Shown here in pieces: positions 1 through 52,860 of a stretch of 64,000 nt of DNA. Below the pieces are notes generated by a model, which did no database searches, was not told the DNA's origin, and saw only the letters and a list, made by a program, of their open reading frames with translations. A program made the position numbers and the translations under genes. Position 1 is the stretch's first letter. Each line of letters begins with the position of its first letter. Origin of the DNA: Mobula hypostoma (taxonomy: Eukaryota); assembly GCF_963921235.1 (NCBI RefSeq), contig NC_086108.1:61692001-61756000 (forward strand), in the 5' to 3' direction.

Positions 1-689
1 GACGCCTTATCATATTTAATGATTTTTTGCTGAATGCTTTTATTCTGAAAATGAAAAAAGAATTGTTATGCCAACTTGATTGGACTCTCCACAGATGTTC
101 AATGTTTCTAAGATTTTCTGTCTGTTTCAACTTGTACAAATTTGCTTTTATCCTCTTAAACAAATGTGTCTGATTAACAATCTCATATGCACGTCTCAGG
201 TTTAAAGGCAACATTTCTGGACAAACTTCTAAAATATAACATAAATGTGTTTGTGTTGGCATGTGTGTATGCATATATTTGCACGCATGCTTGCATACCT
301 ATACACACGTACCTGCTGATACATAGTGATTAGGTTCACATACGTTTGTTCATGTGGCAGGATATTAAAGGAATTATGTCCTAGAATATGTCAGTAGTAC
401 AAGAAAATTGGGGGATGGGAGTCATGGAATCTGCTGATCAGAAGACCATTTCAAAGAGCACCCTAAATTTATGAATCTCATTACGTCACACAAACTGTAA
501 AGATACAGCATGCACTTAAAGGCTGCAACATTACAAAAGTGCAGGGAATGGAACAGGGCTGAAATAACCCAAGTTTCCCTGAATTAGAAGCATGTATCCT
601 GAAATATTGCATAACCGGTGACGTGACCCAACTACAATATCTTTTGTCTTATATCCAGTAAAGAATAAATAGAAATTGCATCTCTCGGG

Positions 690-4215: not shown

Positions 4216-4535
4216 GGGCTGCATGGTGATGTATCTTGTAATCCACAGCGATATATTACCAGAGACTCAGGTTCAATCTTGCCCTTGAGTGCCACACATT
4301 CTCTGCACGCTGCCAGTTCCACTCTTGTCAATCAACAATGTTAATTTGAAGACACAATTTGGAGCAGAAACAAATCTTTTGGCAGAACTCATACAGGGTT
4401 TCGCCTGAAACATGGTCAATGCTTTTACCCCCTCAGATGGATCCTGATCTTCTGAATTTATCCAGCGCTTTATCTTTTGCACCATTTTTAAGCTCCAACC
4501 CCTCCCCTCCCCACCAACACCAAATCACCAGCATA

Positions 4536-10632: not shown

Positions 10633-12347
10633 CGTCATGGCTATCCCTCGAGGTCAAGGATGATGGTCTTTGTTCTGTTGATCTACTTACGGGCTCTCAA
10701 GTGGCTTATGAGTCCAACCTTGGCTTTGAAAGTTCTTCCGCATTCAGGACAGGTAGTTCCAGATGGCAGATCGGGCTTTGGTTGTTGCTGCCTCTCTTTA
10801 CATTTTCTTCTCTTTTCTTCTAATTCTGCACACCTGTTGGCTTTGAAAGTTGCTGTTCCTTCTCGGATGATGGCTTGCCAGAGTTTCCTGTCCTTGGCAT
10901 TGGTTTCCCAGTTGTTGATGTCAATGTTACCTTTCTTCATGTTGGCTTTTAAGACGTCTTTGAATCTCTTCTGTTGTCTGCTCTTTTACGTTTGCCTTCT
11001 TTAAGCTGGGAGTAGAAGATTTATTTCGGCAGACATTTGTCTTTCATCCGAACAACATGACCGCTCCATCTTAGTTGGTTCTTGATGACGTAGGCTTCAA
11101 TGTTTGTTGTTTTTGCTTCATTCAGCACACTGACATTGGTTCTTCTATCTTCCCAGCTGATACTTAAGATGTTTTGAAGACAGCGTTGATAGAACTTTTC
11201 AAGTGTCTTCAGATGTTGTCGGTATGTTGTCCAGGTTTCTGATGCATACAGGAGGGTTGGGATTACCACTGCTTTCTACACTAACATTTTGGTATCTGGT
11301 CAGATGTCACGATCATGAAAGACTCTTGTTCGGAGACGTCCAAAAGCTGTTCCAGCGCATTTTAGACAATGTTGGATCTCGTCAGTAAGGTCGACATTGG
11401 AGGAGAGGTGACTTCCAGGATATGGGAAATGGTCCACGTTTTCCAGGGTTGTTTCACCAAGTTGAATTGATGGTTCTATCTGACTTGTTTCAATTGGTGA
11501 CGGTTGATAGATGATCTTGGAATTGATGGTAAGTCCAAGTTTCGCGTATGCACGGTTGAAGGCAGTCAGAATCTGTTGTAGGTGGATTTCTGAAAGAGCT
11601 GCAACACTGTTGTCATCTGCGTATTGGAACTCGATGAGGGAACTCGAGGATGTCTTCGTTTTGGAATGTGATTAACAACATACCAAAACAGCCCGTTGAC
11701 GACTCCCTAAGCAAAATACCAACACTTGAAGAAGTCAAGGAAGCCATCAAAACCTTGAAAAACAACAAGGCCGCTGGACTCGATGGAATACCAGCCGAGG
11801 TCTACATAATTGGAGGTAACCTGCTTCATTATCAACTGCATCAACTTCTCATCAAGATCTGGATAAATGAAGACGTACCAGCAGACTTTAGAGACTCAGC
11901 AATCGTTACCATCTACAAAAGGAAAGGTGATCGATCCAAATGCGGAAACTATCATGGAATTTCCCTGTTAGCAACAGCAGGAAAGATCCTCACCTGTATC
12001 ATGAACAACCGGCTCAAGCCTTTAGCTGAGAAGATCCTTCCGGAGACACAAGCTGGTTTTAGACCACATGTGGAGCAATCGACATGATCTTCACAATGTG
12101 ACAACTACAAGATAAGTATCGTGAACAACTTCAACCTTTGTACATGGCATTCATAAACCTCACCAAAGCCTTTGACTCGATATCAAGGGAACTCCTATGG
12201 GATGTCCTATCCACCTATGGATGCCCTGAAAAGTACATTCAAATCCTGAGCCTCCTCCACGATGGCATGTTTGCCACAGTCATGGTCAGCAACAGTAACT
12301 GTGAGCCTCTTCAAGTTAGATCAGGAGTAAAACAGGGATGCGCAATT
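10633..12347 (-). mobile_element. RTE-clade LINE with 5' inversion
   Basis: 10633-~11668 minus: EFQYADD, LLYASETWT, QLRWSGHVVRM, CPECGRTF zinc finger. ~11665-12347 plus: GLDGIPAE, NYHGISLL, QAGFRP, NLTKAFDS, GVKQGC. TSD GCACTGAGAT at 10623-10632 and 12348-12357. Confidence 0.9.
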
Positions 12348-21821: not shown

Positions 21822-22468
21822 GACAACATAAGAGACTGCAGATGCTGGAATCTGCAGCAACAATCTGTCATGAACGCTCAGTGGGTCAAGCAATATCTGT
21901 GGCAGGAAATAAATTGTTGATATTTCAATTCAAAGCACTGCAGCAGGACTTAGGGTGAAGAGGGAAGATGGCCAGTACAAAGAGCAGAAGGTGAGTGGTG
22001 AGATAGAAGTCTGTGGACTGAGAAAAGGTGTAGGTTGTGCCAGGGAGGGGACAGAGCGAGGCTGGAGTTGGGAACCAGTGGCAGATGAATGCTAAACGGA
22101 GGCAGTGAAAGAGGGAGATAGAAAAAATTAAGAGGCAAATGGAGCAGCGTGGGAGAGAGGAGTGTGAAGGTTGGAGACAACTGCTGGAGGGGGACATGCA
22201 AGAACACAAAGAACTACCTGTGCTGGACTCTGAAGAATAAAGGGAACAATTAGGGGAGACGTGAATGGCCGAGGTGTCTTTTACTCTTAAACCCCTGCTC
22301 AGTCCGCGGATCATCTCGGAATCCTCTCTCACCACACTCCTCCGCCTCTATATACTGGCTATCTCACCTCTCCACTCTCAGTGTTCTTGCTAGTTTTGAC
22401 CCAAAACATTGACAATTCCTTTCCTTCCACTAAGCTGACTTCCCGCTGAGTTTCTCCAGCAGACTGTA
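21822..22468. mobile_element. Old Penelope-like element with inverted termini
   Basis: Left end 'ctgcagatgctggaatct..' (minus) and right end '..cccgctgagtttctccagca' (plus) resemble the younger Penelope termini at 23-24.5 kb. Confidence 0.6.
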
Positions 22469-23074
22469 ATGAACACTGTAAGGACTGCTGTGCAGGCAAT
22501 ACACCTAACCTGATTTCCACTAAATTGCCTGCTAATACTCAAGGGTAAATTTCCAAAGGCTACAGGTAATAAATAGTAGAAAAGAGGCATTGGGTGGAGA
22601 ATTGATTTAACCAGCCAATATTTTTTATCAAATTTTCATCACGAAGTGCCAGAATTGATCATTCATTTCCCAAATACAATATTCAAATGAAACAACAATG
22701 ACATTATGTGCATCCAGTTATGCAGTTGACAACAGAATAGCATCAAGTCACAGATGTGACCGTAAAAAATGTGTTTTTCAGGCTGCCAAGTGTTGTTTTA
22801 TATGTGAGTTTCAATTCAAAGAGATCTATTAGAATACACAAAAGGAGTTGTTTATCAAAATGTCAATACAAAGCTATTTTCAGTGGGACTTTCTAGGTGG
22901 GGACCCAATTCTACTGCGTAAGGGTAGTGCTGGAATTTATCTTGGGTAGAAGGACCTCGTCAATATAAATCCGCATTCACAATTAGATATTCAGAGATAA
23001 GTGAGTGAGTAACGGTAGCTTTATCCTCCCAGATATTTGTTAATTGAAGTCAGATGACACAACAAAGTTCAAAG

Positions 23075-23665
23075 TAACACACATAAAAGTTGTTGGTGAA
23101 CGCAGCAGGCCAGGCGGCATCTATAGGAAGAGGTGCAGTCGACGTTTCAGGCCGAGACCCTTCGTCAGGACTAACTGAAGGAAGAGCGAGTAAGGGATTT
23201 GAAAATTGGAGGGGGAGGGGGAGATCCAAAATGATAGGAGAAGACAGGAGGAGGAGGGATGGAGCCAAGAGCTGGACAGGTGATTGGCAAAAGGGGATAC
23301 GAGAGGATCATGGGACAGGAGGTCCGGAAAGAAAGACGGGGGGGCGAACCCAGAGGATGGGCAAGAGGTATAGTCAGAGGGACAGAGGGAGAAAAAGGAG
23401 AGTGAGAGAAAGAATGTGTGTATAAAAATAAGTAACAGATGGGGTACGAGGAGGAGGTGGGGCCTTAGTGGAAGTTAGAGAAGTCGATGTTCATGCCATC
23501 TGGTTGGAGGCTACCCAGACGGAATATAAGGTGTTGTTCCTCCAACCTGAGTGTGGCTTCATCTTTACAGTAGAGGAGGCCGTGGATAGACATGTCAGAA
23601 TGGGAATGGGATGTGGAATTAAAATGTGTGGCCACTGGGAGATCCTGCTTTCTCTGGCGGACAGA
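23075..23665 (-). mobile_element. Penelope-like element 3' part
   Basis: Minus strand encodes the GIY-YIG C-terminus ..RLEEQHLIFRLGSLQPDGMNIDFSNF, then a pyrimidine-rich UTR and a hammerhead motif. Confidence 0.9.
23136..23173 (-). ncRNA. Minimal type I hammerhead ribozyme (Penelope)
   Basis: UAGUC-CUGACGA-AGGGUCUCGGCCU-GAAAC-GUC-GACUG: intact core, stem I UAGUC/GACUG, palindromic ACGU stem III, GUC cleavage triplet. Confidence 0.75.
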
Positions 23666-23824
23666 ACAGAATTCCTGTTGTTAAAGTTCAATGTAAGTTT
23701 ACTATCAAAGTACATATATGTCTCCATAAACACAAGGAAACCTGCAGATGCTGGAAATTCAAGCAACACACATCAAAGTTGCTGGTGAATGCAGCAGGCC
23801 AGGCAGCATCTCTAGGAAGAGGTA

Positions 23825-23862
23825 CAGTCGACGTTTCAGGCCGAGACCCTTCATCAGGACTA
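23825..23862 (-). ncRNA. Minimal type I hammerhead ribozyme (Penelope)
   Basis: UAGUC-CUGAUGA-AGGGUCUCGGCCU-GAAAC-GUC-GACUG; canonical CUGAUGA core. Confidence 0.8.
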
Positions 23863-24442
23863 ACTGAAGGAAGAGATAGTAAGAGATTTGAAAGTGGGAG
23901 GGGGAGGGGGAGATCCAAAATGATAGCAGAAGACAGGAGAGGGAGGGATGAAGGATGAAGCTAAGAGCTGGAAAGTTGATTGGCAAAAGGGATACAAGGC
24001 TGGAGGCTACACCCCACCCCCCCGCCAGACGGAATATAAGGTGTTGTATAAGGTTGGAGAAACAACACCTTATATTCCGTCTGGGTAGCCTCCAACCTGA
24101 TGGCATGAAAATTGACTTCTCTAACTTCCGTTAATGCCCCTCCTCCCCTTCTTACCCCGTCCCTTATTTATTTATTTATTTATCTATTATTTTTTCCTTT
24201 TTTCTCTCTCTGTCCCTCTCACTATAACTCCTTGCCTGTTCTCCATCTTCCTCTGGTGCTCCCCTCCCCCTTTCTTTCTCCCTAGGCTTCCCGTCCCATG
24301 ATCCTCTCCCTCCTCCAGCCTTGTATCCCTTTTGCCAATCAACTTTCCAGCTCTTGGCTCCATCCCTCCCCCTCCTGTCTCCTCCTATCATTTCAAATAT
24401 CCCCCTCCCCCTCTCAAATCTCTTACTATCTCTTCTTTCAGT

Positions 24443-24480
24443 TAGTCCTGACGAAGGGTCTCGGCCCGAAACATCGACTG
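24443..24480 (+). ncRNA. Minimal hammerhead ribozyme variant (AUC triplet)
   Basis: UAGUC-CUGACGA-AGGGUCUCGGCCC-GAAAC-AUC-GACUG; the stem III palindrome is broken (ACGU to ACAU). Confidence 0.65.
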
Positions 24481-24648
24481 TACCTCTTCCTATAGATGCT
24501 GCCTGGCCTGCTGCATTCCACCAGTATTTTGTGTGTGTTGCTTATATGTCTCCATATACAACCCAGAGATTCATTTTCTTGCAGGCATACTCAATAAATC
24601 CATAAAAGAGTAATAACTGGAACAGTTATCCCCTTTTGGTTCAAGGTT

Positions 24649-25225
24649 CTGATGGCTGAGGGGTAATAACTGTTACCAAACCTGGTGGTGTGAGTCCTGA
24701 TGTCTGAGGGGTAATAACTGTTACTAAACCTGGTGGTGTGGGTCCTGATGGCTGAGGGGTAATAACTGTTACTAAACCTGGTGGTGTGGGTCCTGATGTC
24801 TGAGGGGTAATAACTGTTACTAAACCTGGTGGTGTGAGTCCTGATGGCTGAGGGGTAATAACTGTTACTAAACCTGGTGGTGTGGGTCCTGATGTCTGAG
24901 GGGTAATAACTGTTACTAAACCTGGTGGTGTGGGTCCTGATGTCTGAGGGGTAATAACTGTACTAAACCTGGTGGTGTGGGTCCTGATGTCTGAGGGGTA
25001 ATAACTGTACTAAACCTGGTGGTGTGGGTCCTGATGTCTGAGGGGTAATAACTGTACTAAACCTGGTGGTGTGGGTCCTGATGTCTGAGGGGTAATAACT
25101 GTTACTAAACCTGGTGGTGTGGGTCCTGATGTCTGAGGGGTAATAGCTGTTACTAAACCTGGTGGTGTGGGTCCTGATGGCTGAGGGGTAACAACTGTTA
25201 CTAAACTTGGTGGTGTGAGTCCTGA
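24649..25225. repeat. 48-bp minisatellite, ~12 units (three of 47 bp)
   Basis: Unit CTGAGGGGTAATAACTGTTACTAAACCTGGTGGTGTGGGTCCTGATGT starts at 24656, 24704, 24752, 24800, 24848, 24896, 24944, 24991, 25038, 25085, 25133 and 25181. Confidence 0.97.
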
Positions 25226-27152
25226 AGCTCCTGTACCTTCTTCCGGATGGCAGCACAAGAAGAGAGCATGTCCTGGGTGGTGGGTACCGCTGATAATTGA
25301 TGCTACTTCCCTGTGACAGCATTTTCTGTAGATGTGCTCAATGGTGGGGAGGGCTTGGCCTGTGATGGACTGGGCCTGTCCATTTTCCATTCAAGTATAT
25401 TGACTGGCTGCATCACAGATTGGTGTTTCCATACCAATCTGTGATGCAGCCAGTCAATACACTCTCCACTACACATCCATGGAAGTTTTTCAAGGTTTTA
25501 GATGTCATGACAAATCTTAGCAATCTCCTAAAGAAGTAGAGGTCCTGCTATGCTTTCTTCGTGATTGCAATTATGTCCTGAGCACAGGACTGGTCCTCCG
25601 AAATAATAACAGCTAGGAATATAAAGTTGCTAACCCTCTCCATCTCTGATCCACTAATGAGGACTGGCTCATAGACCTCTGGTTTCTTTCTCCTGAAGTC
25701 AATAATCAGCTCCTTGGTCTTGCTGACATAAAGTAAGAGGTGATTATTATGGCACCACTCTGCCAGATTTTAAATGTCCCTCCTGTATGCTGATTCATCA
25801 CCTCCTTTGATTTGAACTACAGCAGCAAACTTGATATGGAATTAGAGCTGTACTTAGCAACACAGTCATAAGCAGAGGGCAGGGGACTAAGCATACAGTT
25901 TTGTAGTGCACCTGTGCTGATGCATATCGTGGAGATGTTACTGCCAATCCAAACTGACTGGGGTCAGCAAGAGAGGAATTCAAGGATACAATTACACAAG
26001 GAGGTATTGAGGCCAAGGTCTTGAAACTTATTGATTAGTTTTGAGGGGATGATAGTATTGAATGCTGAGCTGTATTCAGCCAAGCGCATCCCGATGTATG
26101 CAATGTTCCTGTACGGATGTTCCAGGGTTGAGTGAAGAGCTAATGAGATGGCATCTGCTGTGGACCTGTCGCTCCAATCAGAATAGAGCGGATCAAAGTC
26201 ATTTCTCAGGCAGGAGTTAATGTTTCATCACCAACCTCTCAAAGCACTTCATCACTGTGGACGTAAGTGCGACTGGACGATGGTCACTGAGGCATTTTAT
26301 CACATTCTTCTTCAGTACTGGTATAATTGAAGCCTGCTTGAAGCGGGTGGGTACTTCAGATGACCAAAGCAAGAGGTTAAAGATTTCAGTGAACACTCCA
26401 GCCAGTTGATCAGTTGGTCTTTAGTACTTGACCAGGTACCCCGTCTGGGCTGGATGCTTTTTGTGGGTTCACTTTCCTGAAGGCTGTTCGCACATCGGCC
26501 TCAAGAGACCAAAATCACAGGATCATCGAGGAATGTGGGAGTTCATGGTGGTTCCTTCATATTTTGACGGCCAAAGCGAGCATCAACGGCATTGAGCTCA
26601 CCTGGAAGCAAAGCCCTATCATTGTCTATGTTATTTGATTTAACTTTATATGCGGTGATGGTATTCAAGACCTGCCATAACTGCTGAGCATCCTTCGTAA
26701 ATGCAAGTTTAGTCCGGAATTGCCACTTTACCTGTGAGATGGCTTTCTGGAGATTGTACCTGGACTTCTTGTAACTGTCTTGGTCACCAGACTTGAATGC
26801 CTCTGAACAGGCCCTCAGCAGATTGCAGATCTCATGGTTCATCCAGCGCTTCTGATTGGGGAAGACATTGTGGGGACACACTCGTCTACAACTCTTTTAA
26901 TAAAGTCTCTGACAACGTCAGCAGAGTTAACAAAAATTATGGCTGGCTTTTAAGCAGTGTCCTCTGAGTGTAATGTTCAGAGTGTAAATATCCACAAGGA
27001 AAGGGTGATGCTGATAGAGTTAAATAAATCAATCAAATTAAATAAATCACCTAACACAGGCACGGCAGAACATCCAGTACATTGCTGATCTAGTGAATAG
27101 GAGCTGATGAAAACCATTTCGGTTTATGCAACCACTAGTGTACTAAACCTCT

Positions 27153-27789: not shown

Positions 27790-28701
27790 AAGAGTGAAGA
27801 GCAAGGTCGTGGTCAGAGGGGATACTGCAGTTAGGAGATGGGTATCGGTCCCTGCAGCCACCAGTGTAACTCTTGTTGCACTACATGGTACCAGGATTGT
27901 CCATCCTCTTGGAACTGAGGAAGAGCAAGGTGAATGCAGTTACGGATGAACATGTGAAAAGCAATGATAGGACAAAGAAAGGGGTTCTGCTGAAAGAATA
28001 ACAGCAGCTGGAGACCTGATTAAAAATCAGAACTACAAAAGGTAATAATCCTGAGGTGCTTGCAAATTGCCAAAAGGCAAATAAGATCAGAGAATTGAAT
28101 ATGTGGCTCAAAGATTAACGAGGAAGAAATAGGTTTGGAGCCATGGGTCATTGGCACCAGTAATGGGTAAAGAAGACATTGCTTCACAATTCAGTAAAGG
28201 AGAATCAAGGCATTGATAAGGAAAGTTAAAGCAGAATATAAAACAATAAGCAAGCAAGCAACTTAAAAATAGATTGAAGATTTCAAATGATATATAAAGA
28301 AGACTGGGACTATTAACACGTTCCTCGCTGAGACTGAGAAAGAAGAAGCTGTATTGTAGAATAAGAAAATGGCAGAGAAAATGCTTATCTTAACTAAAAA
28401 GATACAAAACCTTACAGAAACAGAGGACTCTGAGTAAAGAATACAGAAATTAATGTTAATGTAAATATTTTGGAAAAATTAACATTAACAGTGTATATGC
28501 TAAGGTTTTGAAGGTGCTGACTGTGGAGGTAGTGAATGTAGAGATTGACAGCTTCCAACATTTTATATATTCAAGGAAAATAGCAGAATAGGAAAGTATA
28601 CCTCAGGTAACCTTATTTTTACAAAGCTGTTAGAGTTTGTAACTAAAAAATTATAAGTAAATACATGAAGTGTATTTGGATTTTCAGAAGGCCTTTGATA
28701 A
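27790..28701 (+). mobile_element. Old, heavily deleted CR1
   Basis: Decayed SGNH-like ORF1 segment, then YLDFQKAFD at 28673-28700. Confidence 0.6.
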
Positions 28702-29051
28702 CGCCGGCCTTTTAGGTCGACCAGGAGGCAGTTGGCTCGTAGGAAATCTGCCCCTAGTAGTGGCTGTGACATCACTGCCAACGTGAAAGTCCAAGTGAAA
28801 TGGCTGAACCCGAAATGCAGTGAGATAGTTAGCGGGCCATACTTCCGAATACTGGTGCCATTTGCAGTGGTGAGTTCAGGGCCTGGGACCGCGTTACGAG
28901 TGTCCATGTTCGGGAGGGGGGGTAATACGCTGACTTCGGCCTTGGTGTCTACCAGGAAGCGCCGCCCAGAGTGTCGGTCCCAGAGGCACAGGAGGCTGTC
29001 TCGGTGGCCAGCTGTTGTAGCTAATAGCGATGGTTGGCCCCGGCGTTTCCC
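28702..29051 (-). pseudogene. Gypsy aspartic protease (start of pol, -1 frame)
   Basis: FLVDTKAEVSVLP (DTG changed to DTK)..ANGTSIRKYG..PLLGADFL; truncated before RT. Confidence 0.85.
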
Positions 29052-29719
29052 GGAAAAGCACATGGTGGACGGCAGCGGTGCACGCCTGAGCCCCATCTTT
29101 AGTGATAGAAACACCATTGTTCCGAACTTTCATCTATTTCCCCCGTGGGTCTCAACGGCTTCAGTTGCAGGGCCTGGGCTTTGGGGCGCGTGATCGTGGC
29201 TAGGCCAATGGAGGCTGCTCCACGTTGCTCACTCTGCCAAAGGACGTCTGCTTTAGCCGCGACCCTGCGTGGGTCGCTGAAATCCTCACTCGCGAGGAGG
29301 AGGCGAATGTCCTCTGGCATTTGCTCGAGGAAAAACTGTTCAAATAAAAGACACGGCTTATGGCCGTCCATGAGTGCCAGCATATCATTCATGAGCTCGG
29401 ATGGCATGCGGTCGCCCAGGCCGTTCGTGTGTAGGAGCCGCATGGCCCGTTCGCGGCGGGAGAGTCCGAAGGTACGGATCAGGAGCGCCTTAAGCTTAGT
29501 GTACTTGTCCTCCATTGGTGGTTGGCATAGGAAGTCGATGATCTGGCCTGCCGTCTCCTGGTCGAGCGTGCTGACTACATAGTAGCACCGCGTGGCGTCG
29601 ACTGTAATGTCTCTGATATTGAACTGGGCCTCAGCCTGCTCGATCCAAACGTGGGGCTGAGTGGCCCAGAAAGTCGGGAGCTTCAGAGAGACTGCGCTGT
29701 GTGCGTTGCTCAAACTCAT
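29020..29719 (-). pseudogene. Gypsy gag with Cys-His knuckle, one premature stop
   Basis: MSLSNAHSAVSLKLPTFW..WIEQAEAQF..LGDRMPSELM..WCFYH*RWGSGVHRCRPPCAFPGN. Confidence 0.85.
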
Positions 29720-29774
29720 GGCTGGTCGCTGAGTCGCCGGCTCCAGATGCCATCTGGAACGTCGGGGTCACCAA

Positions 29775-32770: not shown

Positions 32771-33887
32771 TGGGGGCGATGTTTAACATTAAACCACATG
32801 GAGGAATTGGTGATGTTTAACGTTAAACCACATGGTAGGAATTGGTTGGCCAGTTAAGCTCATTTTATGGTTGTGAAACTTGGCAGAATGTGACAGTTCA
32901 GAATTTTAATGTTTTGCTGAACAAGTAAGAATTTTACCATCCCCAGCTAGTGAGCTCCTTGATTACTTGCCATGAATTCCCACTAGTGATCTTCACACAC
33001 ACATACCCACTGACCTCAGTTGTATGCAGGAGCCCATTTTTCTGGCCTTCTGTGTAAGAGTTGGGCTGTGAAATTTTGGGTAGTGCTGTGCAGAGACTGC
33101 ATCCCTAAAGGACATTAACACGAAGTGTAGAGTGGAGCTTTGCCTTTTGTTAAAGCTGTCAACCTGCAAATTCCACCTGGAATTTGATGCAGGAAGGGCA
33201 ACTTCCCCCTTTTGACCCAGTGAAGCTGTAGTGTACACAACATTAAAAACAAACAGAAAATGCCAAAAACACCCAGTAGGTCAGGCAGCATTTCTAGAAA
33301 GATAAACAAAGATAGTGTTTTAAATATGACCCTCTTTGTCAGAACCAGCTCAGTGTAGGAAAATTAGATAACCACAATTTTTCAGATTGAGAGCCAAAGG
33401 TATAATTTTTCACTGGCAGTTTCCAGAATTACAGCCACGAGGAAACCCTTTATTTTAACTCCATCATCAACTATCTGAAAACACTGTATAAGCACTGGAT
33501 ATTCAGACAACGAGATTCCTTCTGAACTGAAACATACAGCACCTTTTATAGTTTGAGAGTTTGCTATGAGCCATGGTTCCCTGATGGCAACTGTTTTAAA
33601 TTGAAGTCTAAATAGCAAAAGTGTGAAATGGTGAGAAATTCATTTGGGAACCTTGCTCAATTAACGTTACAAATTCCACCCCCATCACACACTTTACATT
33701 GATCTGCTTGAATAATGTCAGGGTCAGAACCACTACAGTCTTCCTCTTGGGCATTTTACAATAGCAGTTAATCTTATATTTTTTTCTCTGGAAAAAAAAA
33801 CAAAAAATCAGTCCGTCCTTATTTACTCATAACAGCTCAGTACTGATTTGGAGGACGTGGCCAATGGTATTAAGAAGAACCTCATTC

Positions 33888-49289: not shown

Positions 49290-49730
49290 AAAGAGAATGC
49301 ATGGAGTGCTGCCACAAGAAAGCGGTGTCTATCGTCAAAGACAGCCTCCATCCAGGTCATATCTTCTTCTTGTTATTACCATTGGGCAGAAGGTACAGAA
49401 GCCTTAGGTCTCACATCATCAGATCAGGAACAGATATTACCCTACAACCATTAGGCTCCTGAACCAGCAAGGATAACTTCATTCACCACTAATCTGAACT
49501 ATGAACTACAGACTCACTTTCAAGGACTCTTTACAATTCATTATTTTTTATTTGTACAGTTTCTTTTCTTTTGCACATTGGTTGCTTGTCAGTCTTTGCC
49601 TGTTTAATTACAGTTTCTTTGTAAAATTCTATTGTATTTCTTTTTCCTGTAAATACCTGCTAGAAAATGAATCTCAAGGCAGCATGTGATAATGTATATG
49701 TACTTAGATAATAAATTAACTTTGACTTAT
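49290..49730 (+). mobile_element. Old Rex1/Babar 3' end
   Basis: HPGHIFFLLLPLGRRYRSL motif plus 3' UTR. Confidence 0.7.
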
Positions 49731-51004: not shown

Positions 51005-52860
51005 TCATAGAATCATAGAAATGTACAGAACAGAGACAAAACTCTTCAGTCCACCTCATCCATACCAACCATGAAGCCTGTCTACATTAATCCCTATTTC
51101 CACATTGGACCCGTATCCGTAAGACCATAAGGCCGTAAGACATAGGAGCAAAACTAGGCCATTCAGCCCATCAAGTCTGCTCCACCTTTCCAGCATGGCT
51201 GGTCCTGATCCCACTCAACCCCATACACCTGCCTTCTTGCCGTATCCTTTGATGCCCTGATCGATCAGGAAATGATCAACTTCCACCTTAAATATACCCA
51301 CAGACTTGGCCTCCACTGCAGTCTGTGGCAGAACATTCTAGAGATCCACAACTCTCTGGCTAAAAAACATTCCTTCTTACCTCTGTTCTAAACAGTCATC
51401 TCCCAATTTTGAGGCTGTTCCCTCTAGCTCTAGATACCTCCACCAGAGGAAACATCCTCTCCACATCCACTCTATCTAGTCCTTTCAACATTCAGTAAGT
51501 TTCAATTGGATCCCCCCTGCCCCCCCTGGCATTCTTCAAAATTCCAGTGAGTACAGGCCCAAAACTGCCGAATGTTCCTCATATGTTAACTCCTTCAGTC
51601 CGGAATTATCCTCTTGAACCTCCTCTGGACTCTGTTCAATGAAAACACATCCTTTCTGAGATATGGGACCCAAAACTGTTGACGATACTCCGAATGTGGC
51701 CAAACTAATGTTTTATAAAGGCTCAGCATTATCTCCTTGTTTTTATATTCTATTATATTATTTATATTTATATTTATATTAGATGCTGCCTGGCCTGCTG
51801 CGTTCACCAGCAACTTTGATGTGTGTTCCTTATTTTTATATTCTATTCTCCTTGAAATAAATGCCAACATTGCATTTGCCTTCTTTACCACAGACTGAAC
51901 CTGTAAATTAACCTTCTGGGAGTCTTGCACGAGGACTCCCAAGTCCCTCTGCACCTCTGATATTTGAACCTTCTCTTCATTTAGATAATAGTCCACACTA
52001 TTGTTCCTTTTACCAAAATGTATTATCATACATTTTCAAACACTGTCTTCCATCTGCCACTTTTTTACCCATTCTTCCAATTTGTCTAAGTCCTGCTGCA
52101 ATCACATTGCTTCCTCAGCACTACCTACCTCTCCACTTATTTTCGTATCATGGGCAAACTTTGCCATAAATCCATCAATTCCGTTATCCAAATCATTGAC
52201 AAACAATGTGAAAAGTAGTGGTCCTGACTCCTGAGGAACACCACTAGTCATCAACAGCCAACCAAAAATGGCCCCTTTTATTCCCACTCACTGCTTGCTG
52301 CCTGTCAGACATTCTGCTATCCATTCAAGTATCTTTCCTACAACACCAAAAGGTTTTTATCTTATTAAGCAGCCTCATATGTAGCACCTTATGAAACACC
52401 TTCTGAAAATCCAAGTAAATGACATCCACTGCCTCTCTTTTGTCCATCCTGTTTGTTACTTGGTCGAAGATCTCTAACAGATTTATCAGGCAAGATATCC
52501 CTTTACAGAAACCAGGCTGACTTTGACTTATTTTATCTTTAATCTCCAAGTACCTCAAAACCTCATCCTTAATAATAGACTCCAACACTTTCCCAACTAC
52601 TGAGTTTAGGCTAACTGCCCTATAATTTCCTATACCTTCTCTCTACAAGAACATATTCAAATGCCTTTTACTTGGTGTAATTGTATCTACCTCCATTACC
52701 ACCTTTGGGCGCTGGTCCCAAATATTTACTGACTGTGTGAAAAACTTACATCTCAGAAATTCTATAAATATCGACATACCCTTTCATACCCCCATGGACC
52801 ACCTTAAACTTGTGTGCTCTATTTATAGACTCCCCTGGCTAGGGACAATCAGTCCTAGTC
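51005..52860 (-). mobile_element. CR1 (51120-52630) nested in an older CR1 3' end
   Basis: SQPGFCKG, YLDFQK, SGVPQ, KFAHDTK; (CCATAAGA)-type tail at 51120-51145. Confidence 0.85.
51755..51826 (+). mobile_element. Micro-insertion: AT filler plus 46-bp Penelope terminus
   Basis: AGATGCTGCCTGGCCTGCTGCGTTCACCAGCAACTTTGATGTGTGT matches the Penelope ends at 23.1, 23.8 and 24.5 kb; 21-bp TSD with one mismatch. Confidence 0.85.

Follow-up and report, generated by a model that had tools for sequence, protein, structure and literature searches.

Minimal type I hammerhead ribozymes are a known class in Penelope-like elements (PLEs). As described by Cervera and de la Pena 2014 (PMC4209133), the hammerheads of PLE repeats have a stem I of 4-5 bp, one additional nucleotide following position 9, a conserved pair G10.1-C11.1 and a palindromic 15.2-16.2 segment. 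Thousands are reported there, mostly solo, with pairs lying 100-700 bp apart on opposite strands; the monomers are inactive and the dimers cleave poorly. The insertion units of PLEs are described as carrying an inverted 5'-truncated copy and a tail of 30-40 bp at one end only (Craig et al. 2021, PMC8557442), as having palindromes where the inverted copies meet, and as inserting themselves into other retroelements (Arkhipova et al. 2013, PMC3846280). For Poseidon PAc of Anolis carolinensis, cutting and extension of both strands, two start sites of the reverse transcriptase (RT) and AT-rich targets are reported; in the same paper, the Anolis motif cleaved only with protein and was dispensable for insertion in vitro, and RNA-seq showed no read ends where it cuts (Frangieh et al. 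2024, PMC11167929). Non-LTR retrozymes, whose type I hammerheads are of PLE origin, are reported in one chondrichthyan (bioRxiv 10.64898/2026.07.22.740005).

Here we describe three minimal hammerheads in a window of 64,000 nucleotides, the whole stretch of DNA analysed, from the ray Mobula hypostoma. These motifs are very probably passengers of a very high-copy PLE, carried at the 3' ends of two truncated insertions that arose separately, and are likely inactive relics at this locus. Lunse et al. 2016 is reportedly a further paper on minimal type I hammerheads of metazoan PLEs. Our literature search found no study dedicated to PLE hammerheads of cartilaginous fish; PMC4209133 and the 2026 preprint may include chondrichthyan motifs in their supplements.

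Hammerhead motifs and their carrier element

A structural descriptor of the full minimal type I hammerhead (core, stem II, NUH triplet and stem I) matched the window exactly three times, at motifs A, B and C, and had 0 matches in all 200 windows simulated with a first-order Markov model. Position numbers follow the usual hammerhead convention, as in PMC4209133.

23136..23173, minus strand: hammerhead motif A, minimal type I, palindrome intact, U at 11.1, predicted cleavage after 23141
23825..23862, minus strand: hammerhead motif B, minimal type I, palindrome intact, U at 11.1, predicted cleavage after 23830
24443..24480, plus strand: hammerhead motif C, minimal type I, G10.1-C11.1 intact, palindrome broken at 16.2

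Each motif is 38 nt long and consists of the 5' strand of stem I (UAGUC), CUGAyGA, one extra A between positions 9 and 10.1, a stem II of 4 bp with a 4-nt loop, GAAAC, an NUC triplet and the 3' strand of stem I (GACUG). Stem I has 5 bp in every motif, and the CUGANGA and GAAA core, the NUH triplet and the closing stem I are present in all three. The ACGU palindrome without a loop 3 is found in two of the three (A and B), motif C having ACAU and an AUC triplet. Conversely, position 10.1-11.1 is G-C in motif C alone and a G-U wobble in A and B. In total, 3 of the 38 positions vary among the motifs, namely N7, 11.1 (U in A and B) and 16.2 (A in C), and all three are C/T or G/A changes at CpG sites. 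There are two possibilities for the U at 11.1: decay of these copies or a trait of their subfamily. We looked for the family state of this position in mis-annotated proteins; none of 3 candidates matched, and one further match was uninformative.

A preliminary description had placed three minimal hammerheads at these coordinates and strands, each with the core, the NUH triplet, stem I and a short stem II and two of them with the palindromic ACGU, and all of this was borne out. The cleavage coordinates that it gave, 23830 and 23141, are the C17 positions in plus coordinates, and its spacing of ~690 nt corresponds to a piece of 689 nt between them. It had also proposed a check with hammerhead descriptors: the structural descriptor finds all three motifs, and Rfam returned no hammerhead, either in the whole window at gathering score or on 23000-24640 at E up to 10, where six unrelated weak matches appeared. 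The loose core pattern alone matched the window 14 times against 7.6 expected, which is not significant. Among the arms in the window, variation was lower in motif columns (3/38) than in flank columns (30/183), a difference that is not significant (Fisher p = 0.22). None of the contig differences listed (40 of 202 rows) falls within a hammerhead, a number too small to gauge conservation of core against flank.

The ray motifs resemble the minimal hammerheads described in PMC4209133 in their core, extra nucleotide, 5-bp stem I, lack of loop 3 and palindrome, as well as in their setting, a terminal repeat downstream of the endonuclease with opposite-strand pairs a few hundred bases apart. They differ from the Schistosoma families of that paper in stem II (4 bp against 7-8 bp), and from the class as defined there in the G-U at 10.1-11.1 of A and B and the lost palindrome of C. 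The host is a ray, whereas the paper names bony fishes, coelacanth, frog and reptiles.

In each motif, stem I is preceded by 13 nt (23174-23187 and 23863-23875 on the minus strand, 24430-24442 on the plus strand) that are predicted, with a probability of 0.74-0.88, to base-pair with the CUGA core and the beginning of stem II. In this model the pairing is possibly an off-state hairpin or a by-product of the pyrimidine-rich UTR. Elsewhere, a hammerhead pattern scan found 0 loci in viral contigs and one in metagenome contigs (L001, positions 1-38, minus strand, at the contig end); this motif has a similar core, a G-C-rich stem II of 4 bp, a different palindrome and unrelated flanking sequence.

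The carrier of the motifs was approached through an open frame next to motif A.

23471..23665, minus strand: open frame P0001, the last 65 aa of a GIY-YIG endonuclease domain, assigned by homology

This 65-aa piece is 95% identical to the C-terminus of the Mobula hypostoma protein P0002 (E 3.6e-32). In the protein search, 19 of 22 candidates passed E 0.001, and the named ones are from rays and skates. A Pfam scan of the piece itself gave no match, and a GIY-YIG match was obtained for 5 of the 8 longer homologs scanned, every one below the curated cut-off. Five homologs (P0002-P0004, P0006 and P0008) have a C-X4-C-XX-C motif upstream of the GIY-YIG domain, and arm C of the second insertion (see below) opens with the last 27 aa of the same domain. 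On the strength of this homology, of the domain and linker motif in the homologs and of the 27 aa in arm C, sequence comparison puts motifs A-C in the 3' terminal module of an endonuclease-positive PLE of a ray. The assignment to Penelope termini with minimal, dimer-type hammerheads, made in the preliminary description, is thus supported by endonuclease homology and by the published class. In PMC8557442, a CX2-5CxxC motif within the linker that joins RT to endonuclease is the mark of the Neptune and Nematis clades, and by the linker of its homologs the ray element would be of Neptune/Nematis type, the corresponding part being missing from the window copies. RT in the same frame is likewise absent from these truncated copies; the longer homologs have RT-like motifs by eye but no RVT_1 Pfam match.

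The endonuclease fragment also occurs in five ray and skate proteins that carry host annotations (P0004, P0007, P0010, P0015 and P0020: a kinase-domain protein, ATP synthase subunit C3, a neuromedin-U receptor, VKORC1L1 and ABHD14A). There it is either a gene-model artefact or an exonised PLE piece.

To describe the family at large, we compared the contigs of runs X1, X5 and X9 (DNA-type) and X15 (probable RNA) with 22900-24640 (1.7 kb). In X1, 295,146 of 27.6 million contigs match this interval, and summed contig depth, which is not a copy number, is 13.7 on the unique flank and reaches 3.4-7.8 million in the bins that hold the hammerheads. The PLE family is very high-copy. The family frame extends beyond 23665 in the loose ends of 264 contigs of X1. 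Loose ends also pile up, at the family level, at both borders of motif B: among the best 24 of 5959 rows, 1293, 1137, 1078 and 224 contigs end at 23824 in X1, X5, X9 and X15, respectively, and 908, 726, 751 and 157 at 23861. At 23824 the pile is coherent in consensus (agreement 0.66-0.68) and points to other subfamilies with the motif and a different next linker. The pile at 23861 is mixed (0.39-0.49) and may consist of copies truncated just upstream of the motif. Both piles fit selection on the motif in active elements and are uninformative on copies A, B and C.

Anatomy of two neighbouring insertions

The three motifs are distributed over the arms of two insertions in an older host repeat.

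23078-23682: insertion 1, bounded by the 14-bp target-site duplication (TSD) 1
23064..23077 (left) and 23683-23696 (right): TSD 1, 13/14 identical
23078..23665, minus strand: long arm A of insertion 1, a 5'-truncated PLE copy with endonuclease C-terminus, pyrimidine-rich UTR and hammerhead, ending at the short 3' end
23666..23682, plus strand: putative inverted mini-arm of insertion 1, about 16 nt that by sequence comparison resemble the extreme long tail of arm B
23729-24542: insertion 2, bounded by TSD 2
23715..23728 (left) and 24543-24556 (right): TSD 2, 14/14 identical
23729..24006, minus strand: arm B of insertion 2, 5'-truncated, with hammerhead and the long 3' end, including a 33-nt extra tail (23729-23761)
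24007..24050: head-to-head junction of insertion 2, with a 23-bp perfect fold-back copy, G/C filler and short microhomology joining arm B
24051..24542, plus strand: arm C of insertion 2, 5'-truncated, with the last 27 endonuclease aa, UTR and hammerhead, ending at the short 3' end
23683..23728: older host repeat, a putative LINE relic, between the insertions, 46 bp including right TSD 1 and left TSD 2
24543..25600, minus strand: continuation of the putative LINE relic, right limit approximate

Both insertions are head-to-head inverted pairs with their own 14-bp TSD, and they lie 32 bp apart. An inverted 5'-truncated arm, a tail at one end and a TSD were found in 2 of 2 insertions, and in each of them one arm stops at the short 3' end and the other at the long 3' end, 33-39 nt further. 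TSD-like matches were seen in 0 of about 600 random flank pairs. The fold-back copy in the junction of insertion 2 (24025-24047) is a copy of 24062-24084, giving a 23-bp palindrome. The targets have AT contents of 79% and 71%.

In X1 (0 differences) as in X5 (5 differences), a single contig spans the left junction of insertion 1, showing that this junction is not an assembly artefact. Run X5 represents a second organism, and therefore the locus has persisted for some time. Run X9 has a contig gap at 23055-23056, which is not evidence of absence.

We infer that the host repeat is a LINE relic because it is similar to window frames that match PF09004 and RT (RVT_1). A paralogue of the target at 49653-49725 is uninterrupted and collinear, with the same spacing. 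In X1, 767 contigs run host sequence straight into 24543, and contigs join 23718-23728 to 24566 in 5/5 such rows for X1, X5 and X9 and in 3/5 for X15; the contigs with these joints are most likely other copies of the host repeat and not an empty allele. No empty site, allelic or orthologous, came to light among the contigs compared. The relic also contains a 48-bp tandem array beside insertion 2 (24645-25225, 12.2 copies, 96% matches), which is without a hammerhead core, and a near-perfect inverted repeat of 31 bp with an 8-nt spacer (25394-25463).

Further pieces that resemble the element are scattered over the window. A fourth copy, a 51-bp micro-copy at 51780-51830 on the plus strand, comprises only the part downstream of the hammerhead and ends at the short 3' end; its surroundings are AT-rich, with a possible duplication of 17-21 bp. 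An older, decayed inverted pair at about 21826-21960 (minus strand) and 22380-22470 (plus strand) resembles the PLE terminal module, with destroyed cores, inverted arms at 21948-22011 and 22319-22382 and a profile match of E 0.059. Weak profile matches to the terminal module, with decayed cores, occur at 33272-33358 (minus strand, E 0.0011) and 4384-4471 (plus strand, E 0.014).

The two insertions share with the units described in PMC8557442 and PMC3846280 the 5' truncation, the inverted arm, the junction palindrome, the one-sided tail, the TSD and the retroelement target. They differ from them in that no RT part is left, in TSDs of 14 bp instead of the 8-10 bp of the rotifer cases, and in that two insertions lie 32 bp apart in one target. 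They also fit the in vitro behaviour of PAc (PMC11167929) in their two defined 3' ends, their AT-rich targets and the origin of their arms on either side of the cut; by linker motif the ray element would belong to a different clade.

By analogy with these systems, the minimal hammerhead of the active parent probably cleaves only as a dimer formed via its 4-nt palindrome, weakly and likely with the aid of protein. The anatomy suggests that the GIY-YIG endonuclease likely cuts both strands of an AT-rich target 14 nt apart, that cDNA would be primed from both ends, at a long 3' start on one side and a short one on the other, separated by 33-39 nt, and that the two truncated cDNAs would be joined head-to-head by fold-back and microhomology. 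A second insertion would then have struck the same old LINE tail 32 bp away, which would explain why motifs A and B are co-oriented at 689 nt from each other.

That spacing could also be read as a unit. All three arms might form one compound insertion, a partial tandem with an inverted copy, or motifs A and B might bound the 689-nt monomer of a non-LTR retrozyme dimer. A partial tandem with an adjacent inverted copy is the typical PLE layout in PMC8557442, and 689 nt is within the consensus lengths of 51-972 bp given for retrozymes (bioRxiv 10.64898/2026.07.22.740005), whose type I hammerheads of PLE origin include, as here, two co-oriented ones a few hundred bases apart. In that preprint, however, retrozymes are tandem repeats of one unit, whereas the co-oriented ray motifs belong to separate insertions, without repetition of the unit. 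Of the 689 nt, the direct repeat takes up only about 240, and Tandem Repeats Finder reports no array there. Moreover, 46 bp of host LINE sequence separate A from B, each insertion has its own TSD, and the paralogue is collinear and uninterrupted. We consider this reading very unlikely and rejected both a retrozyme and a single compound insertion: the two TSDs contradict them, and there is no tandem of at least two units with complete hammerheads.

Given two separate insertions, the origin of the second must still be weighed, as arms B and C could stem from two successive insertions at one site and not from one two-ended event. Arms A, B and C differ pairwise at 19, 26 and 21 of 221 columns (8.6-11.8%), and B and C, which share one TSD, are no closer to each other (21/221, 9.5%) than A is to B (19/221). 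Arms B and C also carry different tail variants, both seemingly abundant (rows 23774, 24515 and 24525), and PLEs tend to insert beside earlier copies according to PMC6765202. Against this stand a single TSD that brackets B and C with none between them, a junction in which the start of C recurs as a fold-back copy, linked to B by microhomology, and the combination of one long-end and one short-end arm, as in insertion 1. Successive insertion is accordingly improbable, if less so than a compound unit, and we retain one two-ended event for each insertion.

The divergence within insertion 2 permits a further, speculative reading. Since B and C share a TSD yet diverge by 9.5% and end in distinct tail variants, both apparently abundant, each inverted insertion might arise from two different RNA molecules primed at the two ends of one cut, the palindrome serving to pair the RNAs within the integration complex and not mainly for cleavage. 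We regard this as doubtful; age alone, gene conversion or two successive insertions would also explain the divergence, and a literature search on two templates per PLE insertion found nothing showing them.

Dimer folding, excision and host context

In the preliminary description, motifs B and A of one minus-strand transcript were proposed to fold as a double hammerhead that releases the 689-nt RNA, possibly as a circle, or cuts a host pre-mRNA. The geometry of this proposal holds: the cores and palindromes of A and B are intact, the cis dimer is nested and all its pairs are standard. Dimer cleavage by tandem PLE hammerheads is also the published model (PMC6765202; PMC4209133). The excision that was to follow from it is unsupported and, as an explanation of the locus, highly improbable. 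Motifs A and B come from separate insertions, and read-through minus-strand RNA carries antisense C because C is the inverted partner of B; in RNA starting right of 24543, antisense C is transcribed first. It is predicted to sequester one partner of the dimer, pairing with a motif at -75.9 or -77.7 kcal/mol, compared with -11.5 kcal/mol for the active dimer. Over 119 nt, this pairing is predicted to reach -234.7 kcal/mol, and forcing the dimer would cost 302.7 kcal/mol in a 1501-nt RNA that includes antisense C. On the plus strand, motif C is likewise predicted to be paired with antisense B.

A transcript starting within arm B would escape antisense C. Even without C, the active dimer is predicted to be disfavoured by 22.6 and 29.3 kcal/mol in transcripts of 761 and 947 nt; we weight this penalty of 22-29 kcal/mol lightly, as it comes from a folding model without tertiary terms and without an active control. 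Local folds put the core into the upstream hairpin (probability 0.74-0.88), U occupies 11.1 in both A and B, and published dimers cleave poorly (PMC4209133). Among the joints listed (15 of 2769 rows), those that skip ~690 nt come from DNA-type runs X1 and X5, with none from the probable RNA run, and are most simply other family copies fitting A and B in turn.

For the host pre-mRNA variant, we scanned 73 of the 77 window frames of at least 100 aa (the 4 in the 48-bp array were omitted) and 217/217 of those of 62-99 aa. None of these 290 frames contained a host exon, a result that short or domain-free exons would escape, so that the locus may still be intronic. Domain matches in the 290 frames were to RT, endonuclease, PF09004 and DUF7041; three frame matches below cut-off were to a C2H2 finger (10686-10985), TT_ORF2-like and Pyr4-TMTC. 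The DUF7041 match (E 9.5e-21) is in the minus-strand frame 29102-29767, within a region at 28566-29767 that probably represents a gag-like fragment of an LTR element. Run X15, probably RNA and the one of six RNA-type runs compared, has zero contig depth on the unique flank 22900-23017, which is weak evidence. Cleavage of a host pre-mRNA thus found no support.

We therefore give very little credence to excision of the 689-nt piece in vivo. Some cleavage of A and B in vitro at high Mg2+ is conceivable, since both keep all core nucleotides and the palindrome and can form a nested cis dimer.

Meaning for Penelope-like elements in rays

The three motifs are ordinary relics: the ribozyme class is known, and so is the layout of the retroelement, and a function specific to this locus is unlikely. 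By itself the locus, one relic copy among very many, matters little. It illustrates PLE insertion anatomy cleanly in a cartilaginous fish, with two 3' ends, inverted arms and 14-bp TSDs. If two RNAs per insertion were indeed used, the number of templates would be directly countable for each insertion, given the very many such pairs in ray genomes. These genomes would then constitute a large natural data set on the unresolved mechanism of PLE integration, and the same data set would bear on the purpose of the weakly cleaving hammerhead.
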